Notes: generated by a model from the sequence alone, not told the origin. Shown: positions 25,676 through 50,717, counted from the first letter of the stretch. The stretch is DNA of 64,000 nucleotides from Gammaproteobacteria bacterium (GCA_020845935.1 JADLEV010000046.1:379-64378), one strand, 5' to 3'. Numbers and translations: made by a program.

Positions 25676-26533
25676 ATGACGGTCAACAGCATGACCGCAT
25701 TCGCCAGCGATACGCTCGGCGGTGCCTTTGGCGAACTGACCTGTGAGTTGCGGACGGTCAATCACCGCTTTCTCGATCTCGGCATCCGCTTGCCGGACGA
25801 ACTGCGAGCCCTGGAATCCGACGTGCGCAGCCGCATCGGCGATCGTCTGGCGCGTGGCAAGGTCGATTGCTCGCTGCGGCTGCGGCCCAATGCCGATCCG
25901 ACCGGAGCCTTGACGGTCAATCGTCCGCTGGCGCAGAGCCTGGTGGCCGCGGCCCGTGACGTCGCACCGGACGCCGTGCTCAATGCCCTGGATTTGTTGC
26001 GCTGGCCCGGTGTGCTCGAAACCAGAACCGTTGATCCGGCCGAGCTCAGACAGGCGGCACTGACCTTGCTCGACAAGGTGCTGCGGCGCTTGCAGGACGC
26101 GCGCGAACGCGAGGGCGCGGCCCTGCGGGACGTGTGTCTGGCGCGTTGTCTCGCCGCGAACGCCCAGGTCGAGGCACTGCGCGTCAAGGTGCCGGAAATC
26201 ATTGCCAGGCTGCGCGAGCGGCTGGCGCAGCGCAGCGTCGAACTCGCGCCGGATCTCGACGAGAGCCGATTGCATCAGGAATGTGCGTTGCTTGCGCAGA
26301 AGCTCGACGTCGACGAGGAACTGGATCGCCTCGCACTGCACCTGCAGGAGGCCGAACGGGTGCTGCGCCAGGGCGGCGCGATTGGCCGGCGGCTCGACTT
26401 CTTGCTGCAGGAGATGCATCGCGAGGCAAATACCATCGGCTCGAAGTCGGCCCACGTCGATTCGACCGGGGCCTCGCTGGAACTCAAGGTCCTGGTTGAA
26501 CAGATGCGCGAACAGGTGCAGAACATCGAATGA
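25676..26533 (+). CDS. yicC: YicC/YloC family stress-induced protein
   Basis: MTAFAS...WELRSVNHRFLD-type N-terminus and C-terminal DEE..RL block. Divergent from rph as in E. coli. Confidence 0.8.
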   Translation: MTVNSMTAFASDTLGGAFGELTCELRTVNHRFLDLGIRLPDELRALESDVRSRIGDRLARGKVDCSLRLRPNADPTGALTVNRPLAQSLVAAARDVAPDAVLNALDLLRWPGVLETRTVDPAELRQAALTLLDKVLRRLQDAREREGAALRDVCLARCLAANAQVEALRVKVPEIIARLRERLAQRSVELAPDLDESRLHQECALLAQKLDVDEELDRLALHLQEAERVLRQGGAIGRRLDFLLQEMHREANTIGSKSAHVDSTGASLELKVLVEQMREQVQNIE

Positions 26534-27144
26534 GCGGTTCGCTGTTCGTGATTGCGGCACCCTCGGGCGCGGGCAAGACCAGCCTCGTCAAGGCGCTGGT
26601 CGCCACAGTGCCCGGCCTGCGCATCTCGGTGTCACACACGACCCGTGCGCCGCGCGACGGAGAGGCCGAGGGCGTCGATTACTTCTTCGTCGCGCCGCAC
26701 CAATTCCAGCGCATGGTCGAGACCGATGCGCTGCTCGAACATGCGACCGTGTTCGGCCGCAGCTATGGCACGTCACGCGCGTTCGTCGAACGCGAACTCG
26801 CCGCCGGAACCGACGTGATCCTGGAAATCGACTGGCAGGGCGCCCGGACCGTCCGCCGCCTGCACCCGGCCGCGATCAGCATCTTCATCCTGCCGCCGTC
26901 ACTGGCCAGCCTGCGCCGCCGGCTGGAGAGCCGCGGCAAGGATGACAACGGCATCATCGAACAGCGAATGGCACAGGCACAGCAGGAACTGTCCCACTAT
27001 GCCGAATTTGACTACCTCGTCGTCAACGACGACTTTACCCAAGCCATCGCCGACCTGACCGCGATCATCCATGCCAGCCGCCTCGGTCTGAGTTTCCAGC
27101 GCCTGCGTCTCCACGACCTGTTGCAGCGGCTGGGGCTGGCCTGA
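26530..27144 (+). CDS. gmk: Guanylate kinase
   Basis: LFVIAAPSGAGKTSLVKALV P-loop and the gmk consensus. Confidence 0.9.
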   Translation: MSGSLFVIAAPSGAGKTSLVKALVATVPGLRISVSHTTRAPRDGEAEGVDYFFVAPHQFQRMVETDALLEHATVFGRSYGTSRAFVERELAAGTDVILEIDWQGARTVRRLHPAAISIFILPPSLASLRRRLESRGKDDNGIIEQRMAQAQQELSHYAEFDYLVVNDDFTQAIADLTAIIHASRLGLSFQRLRLHDLLQRLGLA

Positions 27145-28212
27145 CTACAGGCGAAACAGGCGCTCGGCGTTACCCTGGAAAAAGCGTCGCTTGTCGGCGT
27201 CGTCGAGTGGCAGCGCGTCGACCATCGCGACCTCGCACGGCTGGTACTGGTAGGGGTAATCCATCGCGTACAGCACCCGATCGACGCCAAGCACCGACTG
27301 CGCCAGTGTGATTGCCGGGGCCCAGGGCACACCGCTGTTCGTCACGTAGATGTTTTCCCGCAGGTAGTCGCTGGGCAGATGTCGCAATTCCGGCATGAAT
27401 TTCGCCCGATTATGCTGCTGCATGTAATCGAGTCGATACAACCAGTAGGGCAGTCCCTCGCCGGCATGACCGATGACTATTTTCAGGCGCGGGAAGCGAT
27501 CGAATGCGCCGCTGGTGATGATGGCGAGCGTGTGCAGCGCCACCTCGACGCCAAAGCCCATCAGCGCGCGATCCATGCCGCGTTGCAGGAACGGTTGCAA
27601 CATCGCCGGCGCCGGTGTGCGGGGATGGATATAGATTGGGACATCGAGCGCTTCGGCAGCCTCGAAGATCACCCAGAAGCGCGGGTCATCCAGATATTCG
27701 CCCTTGGTGTGCGAGTTGATGACCGCACCCTTCAGACCCAGCCGGGTGACGGCGCGTTCCAGTTCACGCGCCGCCGCCACGGGATCCTGCGGGGCGATGG
27801 CGGCAAGCCCCGCCAACCGGGTGGGGTGGCGCCGGATCGCGGCGGCCAGCTGATCGTTGCTGTCCGCCGCCAGCGCGATCGCGGTGTCGGCGGCAAACAC
27901 CTGTACGCCTGGCGCCGTCAGCAGCAACAGTTGCACATCGATGCCGGCCGCATCCATGTCGGCGATCCGCATCGCGTCCACATCGAGCAGACGATCGAGC
28001 AACACGCCGCCGAGATCGATGAACCGTCCCCACATCGAGATGAATCCGGGTTCGTCGGCCGGCCGCCGCGCGAGCAGTTCCCGATAGGCATGGAACAGCT
28101 CCGGCGTCATCCACGCCTCCTCGGTGGCGATACGGCGGTACGGCGCCGGACCGGGCCTCTGCGCATATTCGTCGGTGGTGCGCGGAATCGTCGGTGGTAA
28201 GGGGTGCGCCAT
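27145..28212 (-). CDS. Amidohydrolase-2 family metal-dependent hydrolase/decarboxylase (ACMSD-like)
   Basis: TIM-barrel amidohydrolase-2 blocks (VINSHT..., IVIGHAGEGLPYW, YAMDYPY). Start at MAHPLPP, overlapping the upstream gene's stop by 4 nt. Confidence 0.65.
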   Translation of the reverse strand: MAHPLPPTIPRTTDEYAQRPGPAPYRRIATEEAWMTPELFHAYRELLARRPADEPGFISMWGRFIDLGGVLLDRLLDVDAMRIADMDAAGIDVQLLLLTAPGVQVFAADTAIALAADSNDQLAAAIRRHPTRLAGLAAIAPQDPVAAARELERAVTRLGLKGAVINSHTKGEYLDDPRFWVIFEAAEALDVPIYIHPRTPAPAMLQPFLQRGMDRALMGFGVEVALHTLAIITSGAFDRFPRLKIVIGHAGEGLPYWLYRLDYMQQHNRAKFMPELRHLPSDYLRENIYVTNSGVPWAPAITLAQSVLGVDRVLYAMDYPYQYQPCEVAMVDALPLDDADKRRFFQGNAERLFRL

Positions 28213-28214
28213 GG

Positions 28215-28970
28215 TCAGTCCTCCGCCGCCTGCAGCGCCTGGTGCCACAAATCCGATGGACAGTCGTACTCCAGCGTCGAGTCATCGGCGATGCGCTGGT
28301 AATACACGGTCGTGGTCACGGGCTGCTGATACAGATCCGGATCGGTGATCGTGAGTTCGATGGCGAGCACAGCGTCGTTCACCGGCTTCTGATTCTGCGT
28401 GTAGGCGTTCAAGGGCGCCTTGACGTCGGCGCGGCGGGTCAGCGATATCCGCTCCCGGATTCGCGTCTGTTCCGAGCGCGGCCAGGGACGCAGCAGCGAC
28501 TCCTGCAACAGCGCAGTATCGACGACCAGCGTCGCCCCCTGCCACTGGCCGATGGAATAACCCATCCGTGTCGCCGGGTAATCGGACGGATGCTTCCGGC
28601 CATCGATGAAGATGCGCCGAACCTGCATCTCCATCTCCGCGAGCATCGTCAGGCGATCCCTGGTTTGCAGTACTTCGATCGGATAGCCGACCAGCGCGGT
28701 CATCGTCGCCGGCATGCCGGGCGGGACGCAGAAGGCACCGGCTTCCGGCATGTCATCGCCGTAGGTCGCGTAGAACGCTTTGACCCGCGCCTCGCCCATC
28801 GCGGTCAGCGCCGGGCCATCGCCGCGCGAGATCAAAGGCTGCAGTGCATAGGCCTGCCAGACACCGGTGAAGTCGGGCCGACCCGCCGGCTCGGCGGCCG
28901 CAATCAATTCTCCGAACAGCAATGAAGCGACCAATACCGGTACCGCACGGACCATTCTCTGATGCACCAT
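28215..28970 (-). CDS. Secreted hypothetical protein (signal peptide, no recognisable domain)
   Basis: MVHQRMVRAVPVLVASLLFGELIAAAEP signal peptide. Codon usage matches the neighbours. Translationally coupled to the amidohydrolase gene. Confidence 0.5.
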   Translation of the reverse strand: MVHQRMVRAVPVLVASLLFGELIAAAEPAGRPDFTGVWQAYALQPLISRGDGPALTAMGEARVKAFYATYGDDMPEAGAFCVPPGMPATMTALVGYPIEVLQTRDRLTMLAEMEMQVRRIFIDGRKHPSDYPATRMGYSIGQWQGATLVVDTALLQESLLRPWPRSEQTRIRERISLTRRADVKAPLNAYTQNQKPVNDAVLAIELTITDPDLYQQPVTTTVYYQRIADDSTLEYDCPSDLWHQALQAAED

Positions 28971-29103
28971 GACGCCCCCTGATAGTCAGTTTCGGATTGC
29001 GGCCGAGTGCGCCACGCCGCCCGCTGAGCATACTAGCCCGCAGCCACCGGCTCGCGCCACCAGCCGCCGGCGACCGCATCTGCCGGGCGGTGACCGGTAC
29101 GAG

Positions 29104-29769
29104 TCAGATGACGACGTGTTCCGTCGTGACCGCAACGGCCGGTGGTGAGGCGGCAAGAGCCATCCAACCCGCGCGTACGAGCCGACCCTGGGCCGAATCG
29201 CGCGCCGCCTGAAGCGCATCGTGATCGGCGAACCAGGCGATATCGAAGCCATCGAAGCGCGGTCGGCGGCCGTCGCGGTAGGCCCCGGCGCGCGGTCGAC
29301 TTTGCAGGTAGCGGAGCAATCCCGGCAGGCGTGCGACCGCGGCGCCCTGCTGCTCGAGCCATTGCCGCTGAAACTCCGCGACCGAGCGATCCGGGTTCAG
29401 CGACAGACAGGCGATCCGCTTGATCGCACCAGGGCCGGGCCTGCCCGCCTTAAGTTCGATGTCATCGACCAGGATCAGTGCGGTTGCGGTCCTGTCGAGG
29501 AAACGCTCCTCGTCCTCGAGCACGGCGGCGTATTGCGGGCTTGCCGCAATCTCGCGAAGCGCTTCGGTATCGTCGACCCAGAGCTCGGCGAAACCGTCGA
29601 ACACCGCCTTGCCATCGATAGAGCACTCCGGTACGAGGCTCGATTGCACATAACCCCGCACGCCTGGCAGCGTGGCAATGATGCCGGCGTGACGGTCACG
29701 CCAGTGGCGCTGGAACTCCGCGACCGTGAGGTCCGGTCTGCGATACAGCAAGGTGATTGCCTTGATCAT
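29104..29769 (-). CDS. Tandem EthD-domain (Dabb-like alpha+beta barrel) protein
   Basis: Two repeats of the TxxEFQRHWR..H motif (MIKAITLLYRRPDLTVAEFQRHWRDRHAG and IACLSLNPDRSVAEFQRQWLEQQGA). Confidence 0.55.
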   Translation of the reverse strand: MIKAITLLYRRPDLTVAEFQRHWRDRHAGIIATLPGVRGYVQSSLVPECSIDGKAVFDGFAELWVDDTEALREIAASPQYAAVLEDEERFLDRTATALILVDDIELKAGRPGPGAIKRIACLSLNPDRSVAEFQRQWLEQQGAAVARLPGLLRYLQSRPRAGAYRDGRRPRFDGFDIAWFADHDALQAARDSAQGRLVRAGWMALAASPPAVAVTTEHVVI

Positions 29770-30320
29770 CGATGTGACTCCGGCAGGATCATTGAACGTT
29801 TGGTGCCACGCAGCGCGCACAGTCGCTGCACCATGGCCGGCCGCGGCAGCACGATCTCGCCTTGTTCAAAGGCAACCACGGTCAGGTGGCGCAGCAAGAC
29901 CTCGAGCAACTCGTTTGGCCGCAACAGGAAATCCGGATTGCTCGGAGCGCCGAATGACTCGTTGCCCTGCATGAAGGTCTCGTAGATCAAGATGCCGCCG
30001 TCCGCGAGTGCATCGACCAACCGCGGCAGCAGCGGCCGGTACAGGTAGTTGGTGACGACGATGCCGTCGAACCGCATCCCGGGAAATGGCCATGGCCCGT
30101 CCTCGAGGTCGCTGCAGCGGGTTGTGACGCCTGCGACTCCGGATAAGCCAGCCACAGCATCGGGATCGCGATCGACCGCGAGCACCCGCTGACCGCGCCG
30201 CGCCAGCAACCGCGCATGCCGGCCGGAACCACAGGCGAGGTCGAGCACGGGTCCACCCGGCGCGAACAGCCCGGCGAAGCGGCTCACCCAAGGTGACGGA
30301 TCTGCGGTGGCGTGGCTCAA
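29766..30320 (-). CDS. Small class I SAM-dependent methyltransferase
   Basis: VLDLACGSGRHARLLARRGQRVLAVDRDP glycine-rich SAM-binding motif and the DGIVVTNYL block. Confidence 0.65.
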   Translation of the reverse strand: MSHATADPSPWVSRFAGLFAPGGPVLDLACGSGRHARLLARRGQRVLAVDRDPDAVAGLSGVAGVTTRCSDLEDGPWPFPGMRFDGIVVTNYLYRPLLPRLVDALADGGILIYETFMQGNESFGAPSNPDFLLRPNELLEVLLRHLTVVAFEQGEIVLPRPAMVQRLCALRGTKRSMILPESHR

Positions 30321-31855
30321 TCCGTGCTCCCGAGCGCCAGGATCTGCCGCACCATGGCACGCGCTGCATCGATCGAGATGCCGGAGTGTGCGGTCATCGC
30401 GGCTTCGCCGAAGTTGCCGGAACCACCGTCGATGATCCGGCGCGCGATGGCATCGATGTCGGGCCGCGCAGCGGTGTAATGGCGTGCGATCTCGCGATAC
30501 GACGGACCGACCGTGCGCCGCTCGACTTCATGGCAAGCCGCACAGTCGTGCTGGGGAAACAATGCGGTGCTTACCGCTTGCCCCGGCGCCACTGCCGGTG
30601 TGCCGGCTGCCGGCAGGGGAGCCGGCGCCGTCGTCCCGATTTGCTCGATGCGCAGCAGCACGCCGTCGTTCTCGTCGGTCAGCAGATACAGCAGTCCGTC
30701 CGGACCCTGGCCGACATAGCGAATGCGCTGCTGCAGATCGTTGAACAACTGCTCGCGCCGCTGTTCGCCGTTGTCGTTGAACACCACGCGTTGCAGATGG
30801 CCGGTGCCGGGAATGCGGCCAGCGATCATCGCCGAGACGAACAGGTTGTTCTTCCATGCGGGGATCCGATCGCCGGTGTAGAAGCTCAGGCTCGACACCG
30901 TGATTGAAGGTATCCACGACAGCAGCGGCGGCTCCATGTCCTGCCGCCACGGCACCGAGGCCATCGGCTTGCCGTCGTAGTCGCGGCCATAGGAGACCAC
31001 CGGCCAACCGTAATTCGCGCCGGCGCGCAGCACGTTGACCTCGTCACCGCCCTGCGGTCCGTTCTCGACTTCCCACACCGCGCCTGTGTGTGGATGCACG
31101 GTGAAGCCCATCGCCGAGCGGATGCCATAGCTGTAGATCTCGGGGAGCGCCCCCGCGACGCCGGCGAACGGATTGCCGGCCGCGGGCGAGCCATCGTCAT
31201 TGAGCCGCAGGATCTTGCCGATGTGCGAATCGAGTCGTTGCGGCGCTTCCAGATCGAGCCGATGCGACAGGCTCAGCCACAGCGTGCGATCCGGCATGAA
31301 CATGATGCGCGAGGTCGCGCCGCCGAAGTTCTTGCTCCACGCCCTGGCCTCGAAGATTTCCTTCAGATCGACGATCCTTTCACCTTCGAATCGGGCACGA
31401 ACGAGTGCGGTCGTCGCGTAATAGCCATTGGTCCCGTCCGGCCGTGGCGCCTTGCGCATGTAGTTGAAATAGACGATGTGATTCGTCGCGAAGTCCGGAT
31501 GCAGCACGACATCGAACAATTGATCGAACGGCAGGATCTGCGACAGGTCGATAATCGGCTCCTCCCGCAGCGTGCCGTCGCGGAACAGACGCACCGTGCC
31601 GCGGCGTTCGGAAATCAGCGCGTCGCCAAGCGGATTCGCCGCGGTTGCGGTCCCGGGCAGCAACGCCATCGTCCACGGATGGAACAGGCCGCGCGTCACC
31701 ACCGACAGCCGAATGCGCGTGTTCTGCTCGTAGGTCGTGTACTCCCAGGGACCTTCACCCAGAGGGTAGACGGGCAGCTGCTGTGCCTGCACACCGGCCG
31801 CAAGCAACAAGCCGATTGCACTGCTGCGTTGCACGAACCGAGGCGCGGATCTCAT
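30317..31855 (-). CDS. PQQ-dependent sugar dehydrogenase (sGDH/sorbosone DH-like beta-propeller) fused to a C-terminal cytochrome c domain
   Basis: Signal peptide. Propeller blocks resembling soluble glucose/sorbosone dehydrogenases. C-terminal CAACHE (CxxCH) haem-binding motif. Confidence 0.7.
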   Translation of the reverse strand: MRSAPRFVQRSSAIGLLLAAGVQAQQLPVYPLGEGPWEYTTYEQNTRIRLSVVTRGLFHPWTMALLPGTATAANPLGDALISERRGTVRLFRDGTLREEPIIDLSQILPFDQLFDVVLHPDFATNHIVYFNYMRKAPRPDGTNGYYATTALVRARFEGERIVDLKEIFEARAWSKNFGGATSRIMFMPDRTLWLSLSHRLDLEAPQRLDSHIGKILRLNDDGSPAAGNPFAGVAGALPEIYSYGIRSAMGFTVHPHTGAVWEVENGPQGGDEVNVLRAGANYGWPVVSYGRDYDGKPMASVPWRQDMEPPLLSWIPSITVSSLSFYTGDRIPAWKNNLFVSAMIAGRIPGTGHLQRVVFNDNGEQRREQLFNDLQQRIRYVGQGPDGLLYLLTDENDGVLLRIEQIGTTAPAPLPAAGTPAVAPGQAVSTALFPQHDCAACHEVERRTVGPSYREIARHYTAARPDIDAIARRIIDGGSGNFGEAAMTAHSGISIDAARAMVRQILALGSTD

Positions 31856-32110
31856 GGCGATTTCCTCTCTGTGTTGTTGGATTCGGGTCGACCGACATGG
31901 TACCCGAGAACCTAAATTTGACTGTGTCTAAATCAATGCAAACGCTGCTATCATCGCCGCTGGGGTTCATCGCATGGTCATGCTCGCCGCTGATTCGGCG
32001 CTTCACGGTGTCAATGCAGCGTCGGCGCGGAACTGGCTTCACCTGCGCCACGGCGCGCTTGCCGTTGGGCTGAACCCGGGACAACGAACTGTCGGGGGTT
32101 ACTGATCGGT

Positions 32111-34162
32111 ATGACGAAAAATGCTTTGGATCGGCTGTTCCGGCCGCAATCGATCGCCGTCGTCGGCGCCTCGGCCACACCCGGCAAGGCCGGCTACATG
32201 GCCGTCCAGCTGGCGCAGCCATCCGGCGCGCGTATCTATCCGGTGAACCCGAACGAAACGACGATACTCGGCCACACCGCGTATCCGACGCTCACGGCGA
32301 TCGGCACCGCGGTCGATCTCGTGCTGTTCGCGGTGCCCGCACCGGCGTGTCCGGCGCTGTTGCGTGAAGCGGCCGCGATTGGTGCCGGTGCCGCGATCAT
32401 CATGGGCGGCGGATTCGGCGAGAGTGGCGCGGAAGGCCAGACGATCCAGGATGAACTCATCGCCATCTGCGCCGAGACCGGCATCCGGCTGCTTGGCCCG
32501 AACACCGGCGGCTATGCTGCGCCACCGCGCCAACTGGTCGCGAGTTTTTCCATCTCGTTCTCGAAACTGAAGCCGGGCCCGATCGCCGTTGTCTCGCAGA
32601 GCGGCGGCATGAGCCTGATCCTCTCCTGCATCGCCGAGAACGATGATTTCGGCGTCAGTCTCGCGGTCGGCCTCGGCAATGCGATCAACATCGACGCCGC
32701 CGATGTCATCGACTATCTCGCGACCGATCCCGACACCCGGGTCATCGCGCTCTATCTCGAAGGTCTGCGCGACGGCCGACGCGTGGTCGAAGCGATCCGC
32801 CGCGCTTGCGTGCACAAGCCGGTTCTCGCGCTGACCATCGGGCGCAACGAGATTTGCGCGTTCGCCAAGTCGCATACCGGCAATCTGGTCGGCTCCTATG
32901 GGTTGAAGACCGCGGCACTGCGTCAGGCCGGCGCGGTGATCGTCGATAACTCGAATGATCTGATCGATGCCGCGATGGCGCTGTCGCTGCTGCGACTGCC
33001 GCCCAATCCGAATCCTGGCGTCGGCCTGCTGGTGGGCCAGGCCGGGGCGGGGCTGCTGATGCTGGATCAATTGAAATCGCTCGGCGTCAGCGTGCCGCGC
33101 CTCAGTGATGACGGCATCGCGCGGATCGCGCGCGAACTGCCGCCGATGCACTACATCAGCAATCCGGTCGATGCCGGCCGGCCGACACCGGCGTTTCCGA
33201 AGCTGCTGGAGATCATCGACGCCGAGCCAGGCATCGATGCCGTGTTGATCTTCGTGCTCGATGAACCCACCGCGCTCGACCCGATCGCCCTGTTCACCGA
33301 GTCGTGCCCGAATCTGCGCAAGCCGGTGATCTATGGCACGGCCGGCGAGGCGGGCGACATGCGCAACGTTTGCAGCCAACTCGCGCGACTTGGCGTCGCA
33401 CCGTTTCGTTCGCCGGAACGCGCGGCACGCGCGATGCGCGCCGTGGTCGAGGACGCGAAGAATCGACATCGCCTCACCGAACACCATGCACGATCGCGCA
33501 AGCCGCCCGCATTGCCCGCGTTGCCCCCGGGCGCGCTCGATGAAGCCACGGCGAAGGATCTGCTGCGCCAGGCGGGCCTGTCGGTACCGAACTTCATTGC
33601 CTGTCGTGATCGAAGCCAGGCGCGCGCCGCCTTGGCGCGGCTCGCCAAGCCGGTCGCGGTGAAGGTGCTGGATGCCGCGATCCTGCACAAGACCGAAGTC
33701 GGCGGCGTGCATCTGAACGTGCGCGACGAGGCTCAGCTCGAAGCCGCGCTCGATCGCATCGATGCCATCGCGCCGCGAGGCCCGCGCGCCTACCTGCTCG
33801 AAGAAATGGCCACGGCCGGAGTCGATCTCATTCTCGGCGCCGTGCGCGATCCGGTATTCGGCCCGACCGTATTGCTCGGCATGGGCGGCGTCACCGCGGA
33901 AGCGCTGAAGGATGTCACGCTGCGCCTCGCGCCGCTGACCGGGGCCGATGCCCGGGAGATGCTCGGAGAAATGAAGGCGAGCGTGCTGCTGGATGGTTGG
34001 CGGGGCAGCCCGGCGGTCGCCAGGGACGCCCTCGTCGATGCGATCCTCGCCGTCGCCGAACTGCTCGACGCGCATCCGGAAATCGCGGAACTCGATATCA
34101 ACCCGCTGCGTGCCATGCCGCAGGGTGCCTTGGCGCTGGATGCGCTGATGGTGCGGTGCTGA
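32111..34162 (+). CDS. Acetate/acyl--CoA ligase, ADP-forming (CoA-binding + succinyl-CoA-synthetase-like + ATP-grasp)
   Basis: N-terminal CoA-binding Rossmann domain (SIAVVGAS...), a ligase-CoA domain, and a C-terminal ATP-grasp region. Confidence 0.7.
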   Translation: MTKNALDRLFRPQSIAVVGASATPGKAGYMAVQLAQPSGARIYPVNPNETTILGHTAYPTLTAIGTAVDLVLFAVPAPACPALLREAAAIGAGAAIIMGGGFGESGAEGQTIQDELIAICAETGIRLLGPNTGGYAAPPRQLVASFSISFSKLKPGPIAVVSQSGGMSLILSCIAENDDFGVSLAVGLGNAINIDAADVIDYLATDPDTRVIALYLEGLRDGRRVVEAIRRACVHKPVLALTIGRNEICAFAKSHTGNLVGSYGLKTAALRQAGAVIVDNSNDLIDAAMALSLLRLPPNPNPGVGLLVGQAGAGLLMLDQLKSLGVSVPRLSDDGIARIARELPPMHYISNPVDAGRPTPAFPKLLEIIDAEPGIDAVLIFVLDEPTALDPIALFTESCPNLRKPVIYGTAGEAGDMRNVCSQLARLGVAPFRSPERAARAMRAVVEDAKNRHRLTEHHARSRKPPALPALPPGALDEATAKDLLRQAGLSVPNFIACRDRSQARAALARLAKPVAVKVLDAAILHKTEVGGVHLNVRDEAQLEAALDRIDAIAPRGPRAYLLEEMATAGVDLILGAVRDPVFGPTVLLGMGGVTAEALKDVTLRLAPLTGADAREMLGEMKASVLLDGWRGSPAVARDALVDAILAVAELLDAHPEIAELDINPLRAMPQGALALDALMVRC

Positions 34163-34237: not shown

Positions 34238-35536
34238 TCAGTACTGCCCGTACTCGCGGGTCGCCTGGAACATCGCCAGGACGTTTTCCTCGCGCGCTTC
34301 ATCGGGAACGCCGCCGCTGCCATCGATGATCAGACCGCCGTCCTTGCCGACCACTTCAATCAGCTTGCGGACATAGGCGCGCACCTCGTCCGGGGTGCCG
34401 GAGATCAACATCGAGGACGGAACATTGCCACGCAGACAGACGGTGTTGCCCAGCACTTCCTTCGCCTTGAACAGGTTACCCTGTTCGAAGAAGTAGATCG
34501 CCTTGCCGGCCGGAATGTCGCCGATATCCTCGAGCCGCGCGGTGCAATCGCCTTCCCAGAACATGCACGGCACGAGACCGTTGTCGATCAGCGTCAGCGC
34601 CACCTGGCGCATCGTCGGCCAGTAGAACTGCCGGAACAGTTTCGGCGACATCATGTTGCCGCCCGGCCAGTGCATCGGGATGAACACGATCTTGCAGTCG
34701 CTGCGCTTGCCGGTCGCGATCGCCGCTTCCGGCAGCAGCTTCGCCGCCTTCTCCAGCGCTTCCAGCAGCTTGTCCTTGTGACGATACATGTCGGTCATGA
34801 TGCCCTTCGAGCCGCGCATGTAGTCGCCGAAATAATCGAACGGCGCAATCGCGGTCGCCGATTCGATCAGCGGAAAGCCGAGCGCGGCCATGTCATCGGA
34901 AAACTTCTTGGCCTGGGTCAGCATGCGTCCCATTTCGGCGCCCGCCTTGGCCAGTTCCTCGAACGACTTGACCATGTCCGGGATCGCGTAGGCGCGGGTG
35001 TAGTGAATGATGCGGGTGTAATACAGCGCGGCGTAGTTCGGCAGCCGTGCGAACGGCTCGAATACCTGGGCGATGCGCGGCAGATATTTGCGCAACATGA
35101 ACCCGGTCGGGTCGAAAATGTAGTCGTCGTACTCCTCTGCCTTCATGTATTCGGCATCGAGATACTGGAACGGCACGTCGTGCGATACCCCTTCCTGGCC
35201 CGGCCACTTGAGCTGACGATAGCCCATGATTTCCATGGTCGGGCCAAGCGACATCTGCGGATGCGGCAAGACATAGGCATCGGGCTGGAGGTCGAGCAAC
35301 GCCTGCCGCAGCGCGCCGCTCAGCGCCTGATAGTCGTACATCGCATCGCGGCAGCTGACACCGGCGCGGCGGGTCGGCCAGAACAGGCTGTTCAGAACGA
35401 TGGGAACGCGATCGGGTTGGCGCAACGCGATCACGTCGTCGATGCGCTTCTGGCGTGCGGCAAAAGCGGCGGTGCCGGTGGCTGATTCAGTCGTGTTGTT
35501 CATCGGGGTACTCGGATTCTTGGAACTCTGCTCCAT
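34238..35536 (-). CDS. Uroporphyrinogen decarboxylase (URO-D) superfamily protein, MtaA/CmuA-like
   Basis: Length and TIM-barrel-like block pattern match the URO-D family. No closer assignment possible. Confidence 0.5.
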   Translation of the reverse strand: MEQSSKNPSTPMNNTTESATGTAAFAARQKRIDDVIALRQPDRVPIVLNSLFWPTRRAGVSCRDAMYDYQALSGALRQALLDLQPDAYVLPHPQMSLGPTMEIMGYRQLKWPGQEGVSHDVPFQYLDAEYMKAEEYDDYIFDPTGFMLRKYLPRIAQVFEPFARLPNYAALYYTRIIHYTRAYAIPDMVKSFEELAKAGAEMGRMLTQAKKFSDDMAALGFPLIESATAIAPFDYFGDYMRGSKGIMTDMYRHKDKLLEALEKAAKLLPEAAIATGKRSDCKIVFIPMHWPGGNMMSPKLFRQFYWPTMRQVALTLIDNGLVPCMFWEGDCTARLEDIGDIPAGKAIYFFEQGNLFKAKEVLGNTVCLRGNVPSSMLISGTPDEVRAYVRKLIEVVGKDGGLIIDGSGGVPDEAREENVLAMFQATREYGQY

Positions 35537-35615: not shown

Positions 35616-36866
35616 TTACACCAGGTCCGGATTCTCGATCAGCACGGCGATGCCCTGACCGCCGCCGATGCAGGCGGATGAGATGCCGTAACGCGTCTTC
35701 GAGCGCCGCAATTCGCGCGCGACCGTGATCGACAGACGCAGGCCCGAGGCTGCCAACGGATGGCCGATGGCAATGGCGCCGCCGTTGGCATTGAGCTTGG
35801 CATGGTCGATGCCGAGTTCACGTTCGACCGCGAGACACTGCGCGCCGAACGCTTCGTTGATCTCGAAGCGATCGATATCGGCCAGCTTCAGACCACGCGC
35901 GTCGAGCAGAGCGCGGATCGCGACCGCCGGGCCGATACCCATGTTGTCCGGCGGCACACCGACCACGGCTCCGCAGGTGATGCGCGCCAGCGGCGCGATC
36001 TTGTTGCCGCGACAGTATTCTCCGGAAGCGACCAGCGCCGCCGCGGCGCCATCGACGATCGCCGAGCTGTTGCCGCCGGTCTGCACGCCGCCGAACGCGG
36101 GCCGGATCTTGGCGAGCGCTTCGAGCGGTGATGGCCGCACATGCGTATCGACCGCGAGCTCCTTGACTTCGCGCGGCAACTTGATGCCACGCGGCTTGTA
36201 GCCTTCGAGTTCGAACGTCTCGTTCGAGACCGGAACGATTTCACCGGCGAGGAAACCACTCTGCTGCGCCGCGAGCGCGCGCTCGAAGCTGCTGACCGCG
36301 AAACGATCGACATCCTCACGACTCAATTTGTATTCGACCGCGAGGCGTTCCGCGGTGTCGCCCATGCTGCCGCCGAACGCGGTGTCGGTCAGCGATTCGA
36401 CCAGGAAGTCGCCGAACTCGGGCCGACCCAGCGTCATGCCGCCGCGCAGCGTGTACGACGCGATCGGATTGCGGCTCATCGATTCGGCGCCAACGCCGAG
36501 ACCGAGCTGAATCTTGCCGAGCGTAATCGCGTCGGACAGTTGCAGCAGGATTTCCATGCCGGTGCCGCAGACGCGCTGCACCAGAATCGCGGGGACGTTC
36601 AGCGGGACCCCGGCATAGATGCTGACATGCCGCGGCAGCACGTAGGAATCGAAAGACGCCTGGGCCATCGAGCCCGCGACGACCGAGCCGACTTCGGTTG
36701 GTTTGATGCCGGTGCGCGAGAACACGGCGCGGGCGGCCTTGATGCCGAGGTCGATTGGCGCGACGCGGCCGAATACGCCGTTGTAGTCGGCGAATGGCGT
36801 ACGGACGCCATCGATCAGCCAGATGTCATCGTACGAAAACACGATGCCTGATTTGCTGGACGACAT
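35616..36866 (-). CDS. Thiolase family acetyl-CoA C-acyltransferase
   Basis: Thiolase N- and C-terminal domains with active-site Cys context VCGTGMEI and a C-terminal GGGQG-like block. Confidence 0.75.
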   Translation of the reverse strand: MSSSKSGIVFSYDDIWLIDGVRTPFADYNGVFGRVAPIDLGIKAARAVFSRTGIKPTEVGSVVAGSMAQASFDSYVLPRHVSIYAGVPLNVPAILVQRVCGTGMEILLQLSDAITLGKIQLGLGVGAESMSRNPIASYTLRGGMTLGRPEFGDFLVESLTDTAFGGSMGDTAERLAVEYKLSREDVDRFAVSSFERALAAQQSGFLAGEIVPVSNETFELEGYKPRGIKLPREVKELAVDTHVRPSPLEALAKIRPAFGGVQTGGNSSAIVDGAAAALVASGEYCRGNKIAPLARITCGAVVGVPPDNMGIGPAVAIRALLDARGLKLADIDRFEINEAFGAQCLAVERELGIDHAKLNANGGAIAIGHPLAASGLRLSITVARELRRSKTRYGISSACIGGGQGIAVLIENPDLV

Positions 36867-37889: not shown

Positions 37890-39716
37890 TCACAACTCCT
37901 CGAACAGATAGCGCGCGAGGTCGGCGATGCCTTGCTCGTCCAGTAGATCGGGATAGAGCTTCGGCATCGGCGCCTTCGGATCCTTGATTGCGGTGATCGC
38001 GGCAGGCAAGTCCATCCGGTTCGGCAGGTCGCTCAGCGTGCGATTGGCGATGAAGTCACCATGGGCGCCATGGCAGGAGGCGCACACTTGCGTATACAAC
38101 CGGCGGCCATTGGCGAGGCCGCTGGTCGTGGGCGCGACGGTGGCATCGAGTTTTCGTGCCGGCACGGTCGGGTTCAGGGTCATGACGACGATGCTCGGCA
38201 GGCCGACGTCACCGAACGCATTGCGCGAGATGTTGCCGGCGGCGAGCGCGACATACTGCTTGCCCGCAATGTCGTAGGTCACGACGCCACCCGCCATCGC
38301 ACCGCCGACATCGACCTGATGCAGCACCCGGCCGTTCGCGCTGTCGAACACCAGGAAGTTGCCGGCGAGGTCGCCGGTAAACGTGACGCCGCCCGCAGTC
38401 GGCGTGACGCCGGCGATGACCGGCTTTTCGGCGTGATACTGCCAGCGGATTGCGCCGGTCTCGCTGTCGAGCGCAGTGACCCAGCCGGTGATGGGGCCGA
38501 CCGGTTCCACCAGGCCGCCGTAGTCGAGTTGGCCCGGCTCATAGAACGGCTTGTCCTGCAGCGTCACGAGAAAGCAGATATCGACCGCGCCGGTGATCAG
38601 ATTGCCGTTCAGGCGATCGAGTGCCGGCCCGTTCCACTCGACACCGCCGGCGAAGCCGGGGCAGATTCGCGTGCCCTCGCGCGAGGGTCGTGCCGGCATG
38701 TCGGCAATGGTCGTCACCGCGGTGCGGAACACGAGTTGTCGCGTGTCACGATCGACCACCGTGACATAACCGTCCTTGCCGGCGATCGCCACCAGGTCGC
38801 GCGCGCGCGCCGCGCGATAGAGCACCGGCGCCGCGGCGATATCCATGTCTTTCCAGTCGCCGGGCGAAACCTGGTACCACCACTTGAGCTTGCCGGTGAA
38901 GGCATCGAGCACGACGACCGAATTGGTGAACAGATTCTCTCCCGGCCGATAGCCGACATCGATGTCCGGCCACGGGTTGCCGACCGGCACGAACAGTTCG
39001 CCCGTGGTGAGGTCCACGCTCATCGAGCCCCAGATGCCGCCACCGCCGGTCTTCGCCGTCTCTGGCCTGCTCCAGGTCTCGGCACCGATTTCATCGCCGA
39101 GCGGGATGGTGTGGAACCGCCACAGCTCGTGGCCGGTGACCGCGTCGTACGCCATCACCCGGCCGCGCACGCCGAGCTCGCTGCCGGCAGTCCCCATGAA
39201 GACCAGGTTCTGCCAAGCCAGAGGTGCGGCGGAGGTCGATTCGCCGAGCACCGGCGAGGCGATGACGTTCTGCCACAGCAAGGTGCCGCTGCGCGCGTCG
39301 AGTGCGATCCGCCGGCCGTCACAGGTGCCGCGGAACAGGCGTCCGTTCAACAATGCCGCGCCGCGATTGGTGCCGCCGCACCGCGCCTCTTCCGGCGGCC
39401 AGTCGTGGGTCCATTTCACGTCGCAGGTCACGGCATCGACCGCCACGGTGCGCCGGCCGGTGGTCGCATAGATCACGCCGTCGTCAACGATGAGCCCGGC
39501 ATGAAACGCGGTCGGACCATCGATCTGCACGCGGCACACCTCACCCAGTTGCCGAGCGTTCTGCGTCGTAATTTCTCGCAACGACGAATAGCGCTGGCCA
39601 TCGAGGCCATTGTTGAAATTCAACCAGTCCAGGCCGGACACGGTTGCCTGTGCCTGAGCACCGGACCAGATCGCCGAACCGAGGATCGCGAGACTAAGCG
39701 TCAGGAGATTTTTCAT
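37890..39716 (-). CDS. PQQ-dependent dehydrogenase-like beta-propeller fused to a C-terminal cytochrome c domain (quinohaemoprotein type)
   Basis: Signal peptide. Repeated W-containing propeller blades. C-terminal CASCHGAHGD (CxxCH) mono-haem domain. Confidence 0.65.
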   Translation of the reverse strand: MKNLLTLSLAILGSAIWSGAQAQATVSGLDWLNFNNGLDGQRYSSLREITTQNARQLGEVCRVQIDGPTAFHAGLIVDDGVIYATTGRRTVAVDAVTCDVKWTHDWPPEEARCGGTNRGAALLNGRLFRGTCDGRRIALDARSGTLLWQNVIASPVLGESTSAAPLAWQNLVFMGTAGSELGVRGRVMAYDAVTGHELWRFHTIPLGDEIGAETWSRPETAKTGGGGIWGSMSVDLTTGELFVPVGNPWPDIDVGYRPGENLFTNSVVVLDAFTGKLKWWYQVSPGDWKDMDIAAAPVLYRAARARDLVAIAGKDGYVTVVDRDTRQLVFRTAVTTIADMPARPSREGTRICPGFAGGVEWNGPALDRLNGNLITGAVDICFLVTLQDKPFYEPGQLDYGGLVEPVGPITGWVTALDSETGAIRWQYHAEKPVIAGVTPTAGGVTFTGDLAGNFLVFDSANGRVLHQVDVGGAMAGGVVTYDIAGKQYVALAAGNISRNAFGDVGLPSIVVMTLNPTVPARKLDATVAPTTSGLANGRRLYTQVCASCHGAHGDFIANRTLSDLPNRMDLPAAITAIKDPKAPMPKLYPDLLDEQGIADLARYLFEEL

Positions 39717-44979: not shown

Positions 44980-46785
44980 ATGATTGAAAGGCACATCGGC
45001 GGCAGCTTCGTCGCCCGCGGTCTGTACCTCTTGCTGAGCTTGCAGTTCGGTTTCGCGCACGGTGCGCATGCCGACTTCACGGTCACCGGCAGCGTTGTCG
45101 ATGGCAACGGCAACCCGATAGCGCAGGCACAGGTGGTTTACCAGCCGCCGCCCGGCAGCGCCGGTGCCAGCGCCATCACCGTATTTGCCGATGCACAGGG
45201 CGAGTTCGCGTTTCCTCAGGCGTTCTCGGGAACACCCGGCGCATCGCTGCCGCTGGTCTCGCGTGCGCTCGGGTATGAGTACCGGACACAAGCGAGGAGC
45301 GGCAGCAATCAATCGCGCCCGCAGGTCACGTTGCTGATGGATCGGGTCGTCAATCAAGCCGCGGTCGCGCCGGCATCGGCATGGCTGCGGCAACGGATCC
45401 CGGAGCGGCAGCAGCAGTCGCAGTTCGTGATGGATTGCATCGACTGCCATCAGGTGCCGGCGCCGGAAGTGCGCGATTACGCCGCGGCGATCGCCGACAT
45501 GCACGCACCCGATCCGGCGGTGGCCCGGACGCAGAGCTGGCAGATGATCGTGCAGTACATGAATCGGCTGTCGGCCTGGGAGTTCTCACGCGGCAGTCGC
45601 AAGGCGGACACGCCACCGCAACCCGATGCGGTGTATTCGGTCAACAATGAGGACGCCGTCGCCGCGCGCCTGGCCGACCGCTTCGGTGATCGCCTCGAGG
45701 CAATCGAAGGCTATGCCTGGGGCGCCCCGCTGGCGGTGACGCCGCAGACCGCCATCTACGAATATGCGGTGCCGGAACCGAACGCGGTGCGGGAAGCGGT
45801 GCTGCTCGGCGGGCGTGCGCTCTGGGTCGCGGACGTGGCGACCAATCGCATGTACGAAATCGATATCGCCAGCGGCCGCCAGAAGATCCACGAGGCGCCG
45901 GTGGACGTGCCGATCGGCCCACATTCGCTGCACCGTGCCGCCGATGGCGGGCTGTGGGTCACGCCGCTGTTCAATAACGTGCTCAGCCGCATCAATCCAG
46001 CCAGCGGCGAATGGCGCACCTGGATGGTACGCGACGAGCGCGGCCGAGGCGCCGGCATCCATGATTTGAGCTTCGGTCACGACCATGAACTATTGACCGA
46101 CGCCAGCGGCCGCATCTGGTTCTCCGACATCGGCAACAACGGCGTCGGTTACCTCGATCCGAAAACCGGGCGCACCGAGCTGTTCGCCGCGCCGCCGGTG
46201 CCCGGCCGGGAGAACGAACCGGCGATGCTGTATGGCCTCATCATGAACAAGGCGCGCAACCAGATCTGGTACAGCCAGCTCGGCATCGGTGCCATCGGTG
46301 GCTTCGACATCGACCGCCAGCAGTTCTTCGAACCGATTGCGCTGCCGGATCCGAACTCCGGACCGCGCCGCATCACCATCGACGATGCCGACGTGATGTA
46401 CGTCGCGTTGTACGGCGGCGGCCAACTGCTCGAATTCGATTTGAACACGCGGCGCATCATCGGTGCCCATGACCTGCCGGATACCGCGAGCGCGCCCTAT
46501 ACCGCGACCTGGGATCCGGTGCGCAAGGTGGTGTGGATCGGTACCGCGAACGGTGACGTGATCTATCGCTTCGATCCGAAGACGAAAGGCTTTCAGGTGC
46601 TGCCGTTGCCACGGACCCGGGCGTTCCTGCGGATGATCGACATCGATCGCGCGACCGGTGTCCTCGTGACCTCCTATGCCAACATCGTCGAACTGGTGCA
46701 GGGTCCGCGCATGGCTGTCATCATCGATCCGGGCGACAATGTCTACCCGCAACGCTTCGCACCGAACGGGGAGACACGGCAATGA
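44980..46785 (+). CDS. Secreted protein: N-terminal carboxypeptidase-regulatory-like domain, a CxxCH haem c motif, and a Vgb/SMP-30-like six-bladed beta-propeller
   Basis: GGAGG RBS. Signal peptide MIERHIGGSFVARGLYLLLSLQFGFAHGAHA. TVTGSVVDGNGNPIAQAQVV Ig-like fold. CIDCH motif. Repeated propeller blades (LWVTP, IWFSD, IWYSQ, VWIGT). Confidence 0.55.
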   Translation: MIERHIGGSFVARGLYLLLSLQFGFAHGAHADFTVTGSVVDGNGNPIAQAQVVYQPPPGSAGASAITVFADAQGEFAFPQAFSGTPGASLPLVSRALGYEYRTQARSGSNQSRPQVTLLMDRVVNQAAVAPASAWLRQRIPERQQQSQFVMDCIDCHQVPAPEVRDYAAAIADMHAPDPAVARTQSWQMIVQYMNRLSAWEFSRGSRKADTPPQPDAVYSVNNEDAVAARLADRFGDRLEAIEGYAWGAPLAVTPQTAIYEYAVPEPNAVREAVLLGGRALWVADVATNRMYEIDIASGRQKIHEAPVDVPIGPHSLHRAADGGLWVTPLFNNVLSRINPASGEWRTWMVRDERGRGAGIHDLSFGHDHELLTDASGRIWFSDIGNNGVGYLDPKTGRTELFAAPPVPGRENEPAMLYGLIMNKARNQIWYSQLGIGAIGGFDIDRQQFFEPIALPDPNSGPRRITIDDADVMYVALYGGGQLLEFDLNTRRIIGAHDLPDTASAPYTATWDPVRKVVWIGTANGDVIYRFDPKTKGFQVLPLPRTRAFLRMIDIDRATGVLVTSYANIVELVQGPRMAVIIDPGDNVYPQRFAPNGETRQ

Positions 46786-47099
46786 AACCGACCTTTCTGG
46801 AACGCACGCTGCTTGGCGCGACCCTGATGGCCGTCGCGGCCACGGCCGCCGCCGATGCCGCGCTCGCCGAGCGCAAGTTCTGTTTCTCCTGCCATCATGC
46901 GACCGAAACCGGGCTCGGGCCGTCGTTTCAGGCGATCGCGGCGCGCCACGGCGCGCGCCGCGCACAGATGGCGCCGGTGCTGGCGTACAAGATCCAGCAC
47001 GGTGGCGGCGGCAACTGGGGCGTCGTGCCGATGGTACCGAGCCAGAACGTGTCCGAGGCCGATGCCACGGCACTCGCGCGCTGGATTCTTGGTCTTTAG
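46782..47099 (+). CDS. Class I mono-haem cytochrome c (c551/c552-like)
   Basis: Signal peptide. CFSCH haem site. Distal Met region GVVPMVP. Start overlaps the upstream stop (ATGA). Confidence 0.8.
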   Translation: MKPTFLERTLLGATLMAVAATAAADAALAERKFCFSCHHATETGLGPSFQAIAARHGARRAQMAPVLAYKIQHGGGGNWGVVPMVPSQNVSEADATALARWILGL

Positions 47100-47110
47100 G
47101 GCAGCGAGCC

Positions 47111-48175
47111 ATGATGGCTCCCAAGGCGCGCCAGCCACACCGGCATCACCGCACGCCCGTGCCGTCATGGTGGCGCCTGGTGGGAGTCATTGGTGCGCTG
47201 CTGACGACTTCAGTCGTACAGGCCGAAGACGCCACGTCGTCGGCTCCGGTTGCCGGTTGCGGCACCAGCAACTCCGGGGACGCCGCCTGGCTCGATCGCA
47301 TGCGCGGGAAACTGACCGAAGCGACCTGCACTTCGGCCCGCTGGTTCGATGGTCTGTTCGGCACGCCGCACGATTACGATGCCTACCGCGGTACCTATGG
47401 CAGCTTTTCGGTCGGCACGCTGTGGGATGAGTATGACGGCTTCGATCCGAAAATCCGCTTCAAGGCGCGGCTGCGCCTGCCGCAACTGAATGGGCGCTTG
47501 AATGCCTTCATCGGCCGGGTCGACGAAGACGAGTTCGTGACCGGAACGCTGAATCAGTTCGATACGTTGCCGGATCAGTTCCGCGATCTCAATGACGCGA
47601 AATTGCTGGTCGGCCTCGGCTATTCACGGCCGGGACTGGCCGGTCAGATTGATGTCGATGCCGGCGTCCATGTCGACATTCCACTCGATCCCTACCTGCG
47701 CGCGAACTACCGTCGCGCCTGGGCGCCGGCAACCGATGTCGTGATACGGTTCCGGCAAAGTGCGTTCTGGCAGTATGTCGACGGGGTCGGCACGTCGTCA
47801 AAGGTCGATGTCGACCTGGCGCTTGCCGAGCATCTGTTGCTGCGCACCTCCGGCCTCGCCAAGGTCGCGGAAAAGGTCGATGGCGTGGAATGGAACTCGA
47901 AGCTGACGCTGTATCACGAACTCAGCGCAAAGGATGCACTCGCCTATCAACTTGCCGCTGACGGCGAGACCGGCCGCGCGGTGCCGCTGCGTGATTACGG
48001 CGTGCGCATCATCTATCGCCGCCAGTTCCTGCGCGACTGGCTGATCCTCGAACTGCGCGGCGGGATCGGCTGGCCGCGCGAATTGATCACGGACCAAAGG
48101 GAATTCAATTGGGGGCTCGGCGCGGCGCTGGAGATGCGCTTCGGCGACTGGCCGAGCCTGCGACCGATGCAGTAA
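47111..48175 (+). CDS. Secreted hypothetical protein, possibly outer-membrane beta-barrel
   Basis: ATG at 47111 inside ORF 46676..48175. Signal peptide WRLVGVIGALLTTSVVQA. Alternating hydrophobic pattern over about 330 aa. No assignable family. Confidence 0.45.
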   Translation: MMAPKARQPHRHHRTPVPSWWRLVGVIGALLTTSVVQAEDATSSAPVAGCGTSNSGDAAWLDRMRGKLTEATCTSARWFDGLFGTPHDYDAYRGTYGSFSVGTLWDEYDGFDPKIRFKARLRLPQLNGRLNAFIGRVDEDEFVTGTLNQFDTLPDQFRDLNDAKLLVGLGYSRPGLAGQIDVDAGVHVDIPLDPYLRANYRRAWAPATDVVIRFRQSAFWQYVDGVGTSSKVDVDLALAEHLLLRTSGLAKVAEKVDGVEWNSKLTLYHELSAKDALAYQLAADGETGRAVPLRDYGVRIIYRRQFLRDWLILELRGGIGWPRELITDQREFNWGLGAALEMRFGDWPSLRPMQ

Positions 48176-50212: not shown

Positions 50213-50348
50213 GGACCTCGGTCTTTGCCCCGGCTCTTGCAGGCGATGATGCGCGATGGCCGCGGACAGCGTCAACCAGAGGCAATGACGACACGGTTGA
50301 CGCGGTGACGGCAATCGCTGATAAAGATGGCCCCGGCTGGAATCGACC

Positions 50349-50717
50349 ATGCGCTACTGGTTGTCATTGATATCGTTGACTCTGGTCAGCCTGCCGGCCC
50401 CGGCCGCGCCGACCGGCGCGGATCTCGAACGAGCCTGCAGCGCGGCGCTGCGGGACGGTTTCAGCACCGGACCCGGTCTGGCGTGCCTTTGGTACGGTAC
50501 CCCCTGTGCGTGCGACAAGTCCGCATCCCTGACTGCACGCCCGCAGAGCTGCCCACCCCCAAACCTCGACGAGAGGATCCGCGCGCAGGTGCTCATCGAT
50601 GGCTTTGCCGCACGCCCGGAGTTACGCGAATCGCCAGTGGAAGATGCCGTGGCGACGCTTTTTGCCGAGCGCTTTCCGTGCACCGAGAGCACCGCGAAAC
50701 CGCAGCCGCCGGAATAG
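50349..50717 (+). CDS. Small secreted Cys-rich protein (7 Cys), hypothetical
   Basis: Signal peptide MRYWLSLISLTLVSLPAPAAP. CxxC-like PCAC motif. High-GC codon usage. Confidence 0.45.
   Translation: MRYWLSLISLTLVSLPAPAAPTGADLERACSAALRDGFSTGPGLACLWYGTPCACDKSASLTARPQSCPPPNLDERIRAQVLIDGFAARPELRESPVEDAVATLFAERFPCTESTAKPQPPE

Follow-up and report, generated by a model that had tools for sequence, protein, structure and literature searches.

A five-gene stretch of a gammaproteobacterial contig may juxtapose two translationally coupled blocks within a narrow lineage

Introduction

LigW and LigW2, the 5-carboxyvanillate decarboxylases of Sphingobium sp. SYK-6 and Novosphingobium aromaticivorans (4QRN, 4INF, 4ICM), are the closest structurally solved relatives of the product of one of five genes that lie side by side at positions 27145-31855 of a DNA stretch from Gammaproteobacteria bacterium (GCA_020845935.1 JADLEV010000046.1:379-64378). 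This whole stretch of 64,000 nucleotides is hereafter called the window. In LigW, the manganese ligands and the general acid are Glu19, His188 and Asp314 (4QRN numbering; PMC8187880), and the substrate pocket includes Arg58, Phe212, His241, Arg252 and Tyr317 (PMC6031855). Another of the five genes encodes a pyrroloquinoline quinone (PQQ) dehydrogenase of the GSDH family fused to a cytochrome c, for which the closest literature match retrieved is an engineered fusion designed for a biosensor (PMC12011955). Our literature searches for natural GSDH-cytochrome c fusions, and for EthD proteins together with PQQ dehydrogenases, gave nothing relevant.

The initial annotation, which was made from the sequence alone, described the five genes as a tightly coupled operon forming one compact module that corresponds to no described pathway. 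We agree with the last point, with the addition that the evidence does not show a pathway at all. Based on the gene structure and on the distribution of each family in other genomes, we favour, with a probability of roughly 0.55, the interpretation that two blocks, each translationally coupled, have come to lie side by side in a single lineage, and that they are not one broadly conserved pathway.

Results

Gene organization

The five co-directional minus-strand genes of the initial annotation were confirmed as open reading frames (ORFs), arranged as follows around one spacer:

30317-31855, minus strand: PQQ dehydrogenase-cytochrome c fusion (PQQDH), ORF of 512 amino acids
29766-30320, minus strand: methyltransferase (MT), ORF of 184 amino acids with a TTG start
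29104-29769, minus strand: tandem EthD protein, ORF of 221 amino acids from the ATG at 29769
28971-29103, minus strand: EthD/UNK spacer sequence, 133 nucleotides
28215-28970, minus strand: protein without a known family (UNK), ORF of 251 amino acids
27145-28212, minus strand: LigW-type amidohydrolase, ORF of 355 amino acids from the ATG at 28212

A Shine-Dalgarno-like motif precedes each of the five genes. Three four-nucleotide overlaps had been reported, and two of them hold: PQQDH ends and MT begins within TTGA, and MT ends and EthD begins within ATGA. The third, at 28212/28215, arose from a sign error, as the UNK stop TGA (28217-28215) and the amidohydrolase ATG (28212-28210, minus strand) are separated by a spacer of two nucleotides (TGAccATG). 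The distance from EthD to the ATG of UNK is 133 nucleotides, so the cluster is not uniformly tight; the tight coupling proposed earlier survives at the two overlaps and the two-nucleotide junction and fails at this gap. The two blocks would accordingly be PQQDH-MT-EthD (block A, 31855-29104) and UNK-decarboxylase (block B, 28970-27145). The unrelated pair yicC/gmk likewise overlaps by four nucleotides (26530-26533), and such overlaps therefore carry little weight in the window.

Conservation of the cluster

Gene neighbourhoods were compared using UNK, EthD, MT and the amidohydrolase in turn as anchors. The relatives come from metagenomes, as contigs that are often short. Co-occurrence of the genes is limited to three close metagenomic relatives, L016, L020 and L027, which share 62-83% identity with the window proteins and represent one narrow clade. 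All five genes were seen together in L016 only, while L020 and L027 hold parts of the cluster within the reach of their contigs. The order in L016 is PQQDH (78%), MT (66%), EthD (62%), a major facilitator superfamily (MFS) gene on the opposite strand, an ORF of 106 amino acids, UNK (74%) and the amidohydrolase (82%). The 2.1-kb insertion in this contig falls exactly at the EthD/UNK gap and is the sole rearrangement seen inside the cluster. Compared with aromatic-acid transporter families, the L016 MFS gene remained unassigned (best model TIGR00893, 98 bits against a cut-off of 395). In L020, the order is URO-D-like gene (96%), MOSC gene, acyl-CoA synthetase (ACS) gene (87%), PQQDH (82%), MT (66%), EthD (70%) and UNK (76%), where the contig ends, and L027 holds EthD (71%), UNK (80%) and the amidohydrolase (83%). 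The TTGA overlap of PQQDH and MT and the close UNK/amidohydrolase junction are kept in the relatives.

The flanks of the cluster in L020 are conserved too, as the ACS and URO-D-like identities indicate, and the shared order is therefore of limited value for a functional link; it may reflect shared ancestry rather than selection. Farther out, the neighbourhood comparison proposed in the initial annotation found the families scattered in unrelated contexts, with almost no co-occurrence outside the clade.

The EthD/UNK spacer

A TAGTAT hexamer is located at 29035-29030 (minus strand) within the spacer, and the same hexamer was found 5′ of UNK in L020, L027 and L016. The four spacers aligned poorly in MAFFT; the conservation of TAGTAT rests on inspection of the sequences. 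It is a possible -10 element, and we regard an internal promoter in the spacer (28971-29103) as likely. RNA folding of the 133 nucleotides gave nothing unusual (z = -0.14) and no terminator-like hairpin, and a scan of 26900-32300 for sigma-70 promoters and intrinsic terminators made no calls in the spacer or in the 31856-32110 region. The same scan returned one promoter-like and one terminator-like site, both intragenic and at or below shuffle expectation, which are uninformative. The break in the cluster coincides with the spacer, and this, together with TAGTAT 5′ of UNK in all four sequences, counts in favour of two separate blocks.

The LigW-type amidohydrolase

The amidohydrolase contains an Amidohydro_2 domain (PF04909, 1.7e-41), lacks a signal peptide and has a GGAGG motif seven nucleotides 5′ of its start. 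Its PDB matches are LigW2 (4inf/4qrn, 7e-100; 49.6% identity to 4inf over 335 residues), LigW (4icm, 6e-81), gamma-resorcylate decarboxylase (2e-55) and ACMSD (about 5e-26). The ACMSD family carries an N-terminal HxH metal motif. The corresponding motif here is IATEEAW, and we rejected the ACMSD identity proposed earlier on this ground and on that of the far weaker match.

Residues E31, H196 and D318 align with Glu19, His188 and Asp314 of LigW and show little or no variation among 81 homologues, so that domain, similarity and metal residues are all of the LigW type. The pocket is conserved at four of five positions (F220, H249, R260 and Y321 for Phe212, His241, Arg252 and Tyr317). The equivalent of Arg58 is Leu67, inside a four-residue loop deletion that, like Leu67 itself, is common only to L016 and L027; 55 of the 81 homologues have Arg. 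Because the metal and catalytic residues and these four pocket residues are conserved, a LigW mechanism is expected, and the protein is probably a Mn-dependent, non-oxidative hydroxyaromatic-acid decarboxylase, its chemistry being very probably the LigW-type decarboxylation of an ortho-hydroxy aromatic acid. Given the deletion of the Arg58 loop, the enzyme probably acts on another ortho-hydroxy aromatic acid than 5-carboxyvanillate. Near the cluster, we found neither ligX/Y/Z-type genes of the biphenyl pathway nor further genes of the lig, van or pca type.

With the amidohydrolase as anchor, 80 metagenome loci at 54-68% identity were retrieved. MT and EthD are absent from all of them, GSDH is present at one (L088) and a weak UNK-like gene at two. 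The commonest neighbour family, found at 12 of the 80 loci, is aldehyde-dehydrogenase-like by sequence and not domain-annotated. A thiolase 63-65% identical to that of the window (35619-36866) lies on the opposite strand about 5-6 kb 5′ of the LigW-like gene at three of the 80 loci (L041, L045 and L092). The window thiolase is 7.4 kb from the amidohydrolase, and this proximity may be due to chance.

Nine of the closer homologues (55-65% identity; L034, L036-L039, L042, L046, L053 and L088) begin with a twin-arginine (Tat) signal peptide, e.g., DRRSFLK, which suggests the existence of periplasmic LigW-type decarboxylases. To our knowledge, such enzymes have not been described. The window protein starts four residues before the LPP that trails the Tat signals of its homologues (N-terminal region, 28128-28212), as if its Tat signal had been lost. 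At L088 (586-4708), a soil contig, two membrane-anchored cytochromes c, a GSDH gene and a Tat-exported LigW-like gene stand in a row on one strand; this GSDH protein is 35% identical to the window PQQDH.

The PQQ dehydrogenase-cytochrome c fusion

PQQDH matches the Pfam GSDH profile over its full length (9e-94, positions 3-332 of 332). It has a hydrophobic N-terminus with a predicted signal peptide (…LLAAGVQA/QQ), and its C-terminal class I Cytochrom_C domain scores 22.3 bits against a cut-off of 21.3, with the haem motif CXXCH present as CAACH. Its PDB matches are 7cdy ('glucose dehydrogenase', 7e-56) and 2g8s ('Glucose/sorbosone dehydrogenases', 1e-48), while residues 430-508 match cytochromes c-551/c-552. 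By its sequence, the product of 30317-31855 has all the features of a periplasmic PQQ-dependent sugar dehydrogenase of the GSDH/YliI type fused to cytochrome c: the complete propeller, a signal for export and a CXXCH-bearing class I cytochrome c domain.

Two further PQQ propeller proteins are encoded in the window, namely, a type II quinohaemoprotein alcohol-dehydrogenase-like protein with a C-terminal cytochrome c (37893-39716, minus strand) and a protein of 742 amino acids (50327-52552, plus strand). The source organism appears to be rich in periplasmic quinoproteins. In tblastn, the cytochrome c domain of PQQDH also weakly matches (35% over 72 amino acids, 46881-47096) an ORF of 499 amino acids (46676-48172, plus strand) that has no Pfam family and may encode an unannotated haem protein.

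The tandem EthD protein

The EthD protein has no signal peptide. It matches PF07110 in two stretches (4e-23) and TIGR02118 with 85 bits (cut-off, 30.5). Structure prediction, which the initial annotation had proposed for EthD and UNK, was confident for EthD: the AlphaFold2 model (mean pLDDT 93.5) repeats a strand-helix pattern in both halves and depicts a pseudo-dimeric ferredoxin-like alpha+beta barrel, which together with the two domains places the protein in the EthD family. Its Foldseek neighbours in the PDB are the putative ABM monooxygenases 3f44 and 3mcs, a bacterial chalcone isomerase and the anthrone-oxidase-like 5f9p (TM score 0.69), and the EthD protein 2ftr fits one half (TM score 0.79, normalised by target). 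The model is similar to cofactor-free enzymes that oxygenate or isomerize aromatic compounds. Its homologues are rare (30 in 5.8 billion proteins), and the distant ones are additionally matched by PF09448, the model of methylmuconolactone methyl-isomerase.

No P450 or ether-cleavage genes were found near the window EthD gene. With EthD as anchor, the homologues at 47-50% identity (two contexts) adjoin an acyl-CoA dehydrogenase, a nitroreductase and a methylmalonyl-CoA-mutase-type cluster, and none of the partner genes is adjacent in either context.

UNK and its pairing with DUF6152

UNK carries a predicted signal peptide for Sec export and has no match in Pfam, NCBIfam or the PDB sequences, which bears out its earlier description as a secreted unknown protein. 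Its homologues number at least 217, all labelled 'hypothetical', and the family alignment contains 49 invariant columns, including the cysteines C81 and C237. The AlphaFold2 model is beta-rich, with a pLDDT of 76.6, and Foldseek returned weak matches to CRABP/FABP barrels (E about 2e-3); a beta-rich barrel of the calycin/FABP type is predicted. Four of the five proteins of the cluster are new members of known families, and UNK belongs to an unnamed one.

At 45-57% identity, UNK is found at 15 loci of species-representative genomes and at three metagenome loci (L017-L019). None of these 18 loci contains PQQDH, MT or EthD, and an amidohydrolase is present at L003 alone, where a gamma-resorcylate-decarboxylase-like gene lies at a distance of about 8 kb. 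A DUF6152 gene is located just 5′ of UNK at 12 of the 18 loci (L001, L003-L005, L008, L009, L012, L014, L015 and L017-L019). Such pairs also occur at L113 (5994-7630) and L114 (6782-8070) and on annotated sphingomonad plasmids, once beside a TonB-dependent receptor; examples are WYH_RS16155-16165 of a Croceibacterium atlanticum plasmid and NYQ05_RS20620-20625 of Novosphingobium humi. The pairing is widespread in Gamma- and Alphaproteobacteria, and UNK paralogues are often clustered at the distant loci. In DUF6152 proteins, which have about 130 amino acids, an AHHS motif comes immediately after the signal peptide and could be a metal-binding N-terminus. In the literature library searched, no paper mentions DUF6152. 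DUF6152 is absent from the window and from the three close relatives.

The methyltransferase

MT is a class I S-adenosylmethionine (SAM) methyltransferase (2.5e-10; Methyltransf_25/11/23) that reached no equivalog in NCBIfam. TehB was rejected as its identity, as the match is confined to the SAM-binding N-terminal part and yields 20-22 bits against cut-offs of 218-303. More than 7998 homologues exist and, among the matches listed, identities are 62-72%, including Thauera, Pseudothauera and Rhodocyclaceae; the 66% identity to L016 and L020 is equalled by the 66% identity to Thauera and Pseudothauera. Judging by these comparisons, MT is a generic small enzyme of a very large, highly conserved, housekeeping-type family.

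In five distinct contexts of MT homologues, no GSDH, EthD, UNK or LigW-like gene lies beside the MT gene. In four of them (L028, L029, L115 and L117; MT homologues 65-70% identical), a Pat-like gene encoding an ADP-forming ACS-GNAT protein is located 5′ on the opposite strand, and selU is nearby in four of the five, mostly with selD. The window gene for an ACS-like protein is divergent from PQQDH-MT, lacks a GNAT domain and is 29-31% identical to the Pat-like genes. PQQDH may be a later insertion that split a pre-existing MT/ACS arrangement.

Flanking regions

The cluster is bounded by the following features:

31856-32110: divergent intergenic region between PQQDH and the ACS-like gene, sequence of 255 nucleotides
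32111-34162, plus strand: ACS-like gene, ADP-forming acyl-CoA synthetase-like (CoA_binding_2, Succ_CoA_lig, ATP-grasp_5)
26530-27144, plus strand: gmk, guanylate kinase (TIGR03263, 3e-70)

The divergent ACS/PQQDH arrangement is kept in L020, and the 31856-32110 region presumably contains the promoter of PQQDH-MT-EthD. At the other end, gmk is the boundary of the cluster. It had been described as head-to-tail with the amidohydrolase; being encoded on the plus strand, it instead converges with that gene, and their stop codons abut (TGA|CTA, 0 nucleotides; cctgaCTA, 27140-27147). In L016, an unrelated ORF and a Peptidase_M23 gene are found 3′ of the amidohydrolase instead of gmk.

The URO-D-like gene of L020 corresponds to a window gene (34238-35536, minus strand) for a URO-D/MtaA-like protein of 432 amino acids (PF01208, 5.6e-21), which also matches MtaA/CmuA methyltransferase models well under their cut-offs. 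It adjoins the ACS-like (ADP-forming) and thiolase genes, and its 96% identity to L020 contrasts with the 62-87% of its neighbours.

The GC content of the window is about 65%, without a break in composition around the five genes, and their GC content at third codon positions (0.76-0.80) is similar to that of the neighbouring genes.

Discussion

From the gene structure, family membership, conservation of catalytic residues and distribution of neighbours, we infer the substrates and compartments given below, a likely internal promoter for block B and the functional independence of the two blocks. Judging from its families, PQQDH would oxidize a periplasmic substrate, aldose-like or with some other hydroxyl group, and its own haem domain would relay the electrons towards the respiratory chain. 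MT would be translationally coupled to it by TTGA, and EthD, a putative cytoplasmic barrel, would be coupled to MT by ATGA. In block B, UNK would be an exported calycin-like barrel, probably a binder of small ligands, and the decarboxylase, in the cytoplasm, would split CO2 off an aromatic carboxylate with an ortho-hydroxy group. In the latter reaction, the phenolate and carboxylate of the substrate would first bind the metal, Asp318 would then protonate the ring carbon, and the C-C bond would finally break.

Several observations weigh against the separation into two blocks. No terminator-like site was found between the five genes, and one read-through transcript is possible. The promoter assignment depends on a single conserved hexamer that the consensus scan did not call. 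The linkage is kept in three relatives despite the changed flank of L016, with Peptidase_M23 in place of gmk, which suggests some selection, and the gene inserted in L016 encodes a transporter that could be a member of a shared pathway. At L088, two cytochromes c, GSDH and a Tat-exported LigW-like gene occur in a row. Additionally, the sample of relatives is small and metagenomic.

These observations lend some credit to a single five-gene operon by which this clade would degrade a hydroxy- or methoxy-aromatic acid of lignin or humic origin along a new route of its own, a reading that we consider doubtful. Oxidation by the periplasmic quinohaemoprotein would be followed by calycin-like ligand capture, uptake and cytoplasmic LigW-like decarboxylation, and further by modification of the ring or side chain by the tandem EthD protein and then methylation. 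The genes are co-directional and tightly spaced, and they are retained in L016, L020 and L027 even with the MFS insertion of L016. The LigW-type catalytic residues, the likeness of the EthD model to anthrone-oxidase-like, ABM and chalcone-isomerase folds, and the L088 association of GSDH and cytochromes c with a LigW-like gene also agree with this route, and the earlier idea of an aromatic substrate keeps a plausible flavour from the decarboxylase and the EthD model. However, no pair of families recurs outside the clade, as shown by the 80 LigW-like loci, with MT and EthD at none, GSDH at one and a UNK-like gene at two, and by the roughly 17 UNK loci and the two EthD and five MT contexts without adjacent partner genes, and MT is housekeeping-like, being as similar to Thauera and Pseudothauera as to the relatives. 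The predicted compartments alternate in gene order (exported, cytoplasmic, cytoplasmic, exported, cytoplasmic), yet the window encodes no transporter, and further genes of the lig, van and pca types are absent nearby. The claim of one compact five-gene pathway module thus fails in part, as the genes stay together in three close relatives and each family stands in an unrelated context beyond them.

A purely historical adjacency of at least three independent functions, in which the overlaps would result from genome compaction, is unlikely. MT would lie beside the ACS-like gene by ancestral synteny with PQQDH inserted between them, UNK would be a DUF6152 partner without its mate, and the LigW-like enzyme would have lost its Tat signal. 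The divergent Pat-like gene in four of five MT contexts, mirrored by the ACS-like gene divergent from PQQDH-MT, fits this history; so do the widespread pairing of UNK with a DUF6152 gene that the window lacks, the Tat signals of the nearest amidohydrolase homologues together with the window start close to LPP, and the four-nucleotide yicC/gmk overlap. Nevertheless, the low identity of the ACS-like gene to the Pat-like genes and its missing GNAT domain make orthology doubtful, and the retention of the TTGA overlap and of the close UNK/amidohydrolase junction in the relatives favours co-translation of at least pairs of genes.

It is very unlikely that the five genes and the L016 MFS transporter constitute a new clade-specific pathway leading from the periplasm to the cytoplasm for lignin- or humic-derived aromatic acids, in which the GSDH-cytochrome c fusion, a tandem-EthD cofactor-free oxygenase or isomerase and MT would act on one substrate series, served by a calycin-like periplasmic carrier of an undescribed family and a LigW-derived decarboxylase whose specificity has changed with the deletion of the Arg58 loop and which no longer has its Tat signal. 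We rejected a recent horizontal acquisition of the five genes, as their GC content and GC at third positions are like those of the flanks. The tailoring cassette suggested earlier was likewise dismissed, as no core biosynthetic genes are present nearby and the neighbours are of housekeeping or catabolic type. The family assignments of the initial annotation stand for the GSDH-cytochrome c fusion, SAM methyltransferase, tandem EthD, secreted unknown and Amidohydro_2 proteins, the label ACMSD-like being imprecise.

If the juxtaposition of two blocks is correct, tight spacing and four-nucleotide overlaps alone failed to predict a conserved pathway here, and it was the gene-by-gene neighbourhood comparisons that dissolved the apparent module. 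Three by-products merit follow-up. The first is a LigW-type subclade whose nearest members appear to be Tat-exported, hence presumably periplasmic, and in which the substrate loop of the window protein is remodelled; it is relevant to the turnover of lignin and humic carbon and to finding biocatalytic (de)carboxylases. The second is the widespread, unstudied pair of secreted proteins formed by UNK and DUF6152, and the third is the small, very highly conserved MT family tied to Pat-like and selU genes.

Comparison with described systems

The window PQQDH shares the full-length GSDH beta-propeller and the signal peptide with the soluble PQQ aldose sugar dehydrogenase of the YliI/Asd type from E. 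coli (2G8S). With the type II quinohaemoprotein alcohol dehydrogenases, it shares the fusion of a PQQ domain to a c-type cytochrome; in these enzymes, the propeller belongs to the eight-bladed PQQ family PF01011, whereas that of the window protein is GSDH (PF07995). The EthD family (PF07110/TIGR02118), which includes the protein of the Rhodococcus eth cluster and BH0200 (2FTR), has EthD domains that form ferredoxin-like half-barrels, as predicted here; the window protein differs in being a tandem fusion, i.e., an intramolecular pseudo-dimer. UNK is 29-32% identical to the plasmid copies of the UNK/DUF6152 pairs and 45-57% identical to the copies in gammaproteobacterial metagenome-assembled genomes, and the window and its three close relatives couple it to a LigW-like gene instead. 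The amidohydrolase has the fold and the catalytic residues of LigW and LigW2, from which it is distinguished by its shortened Arg58 loop.

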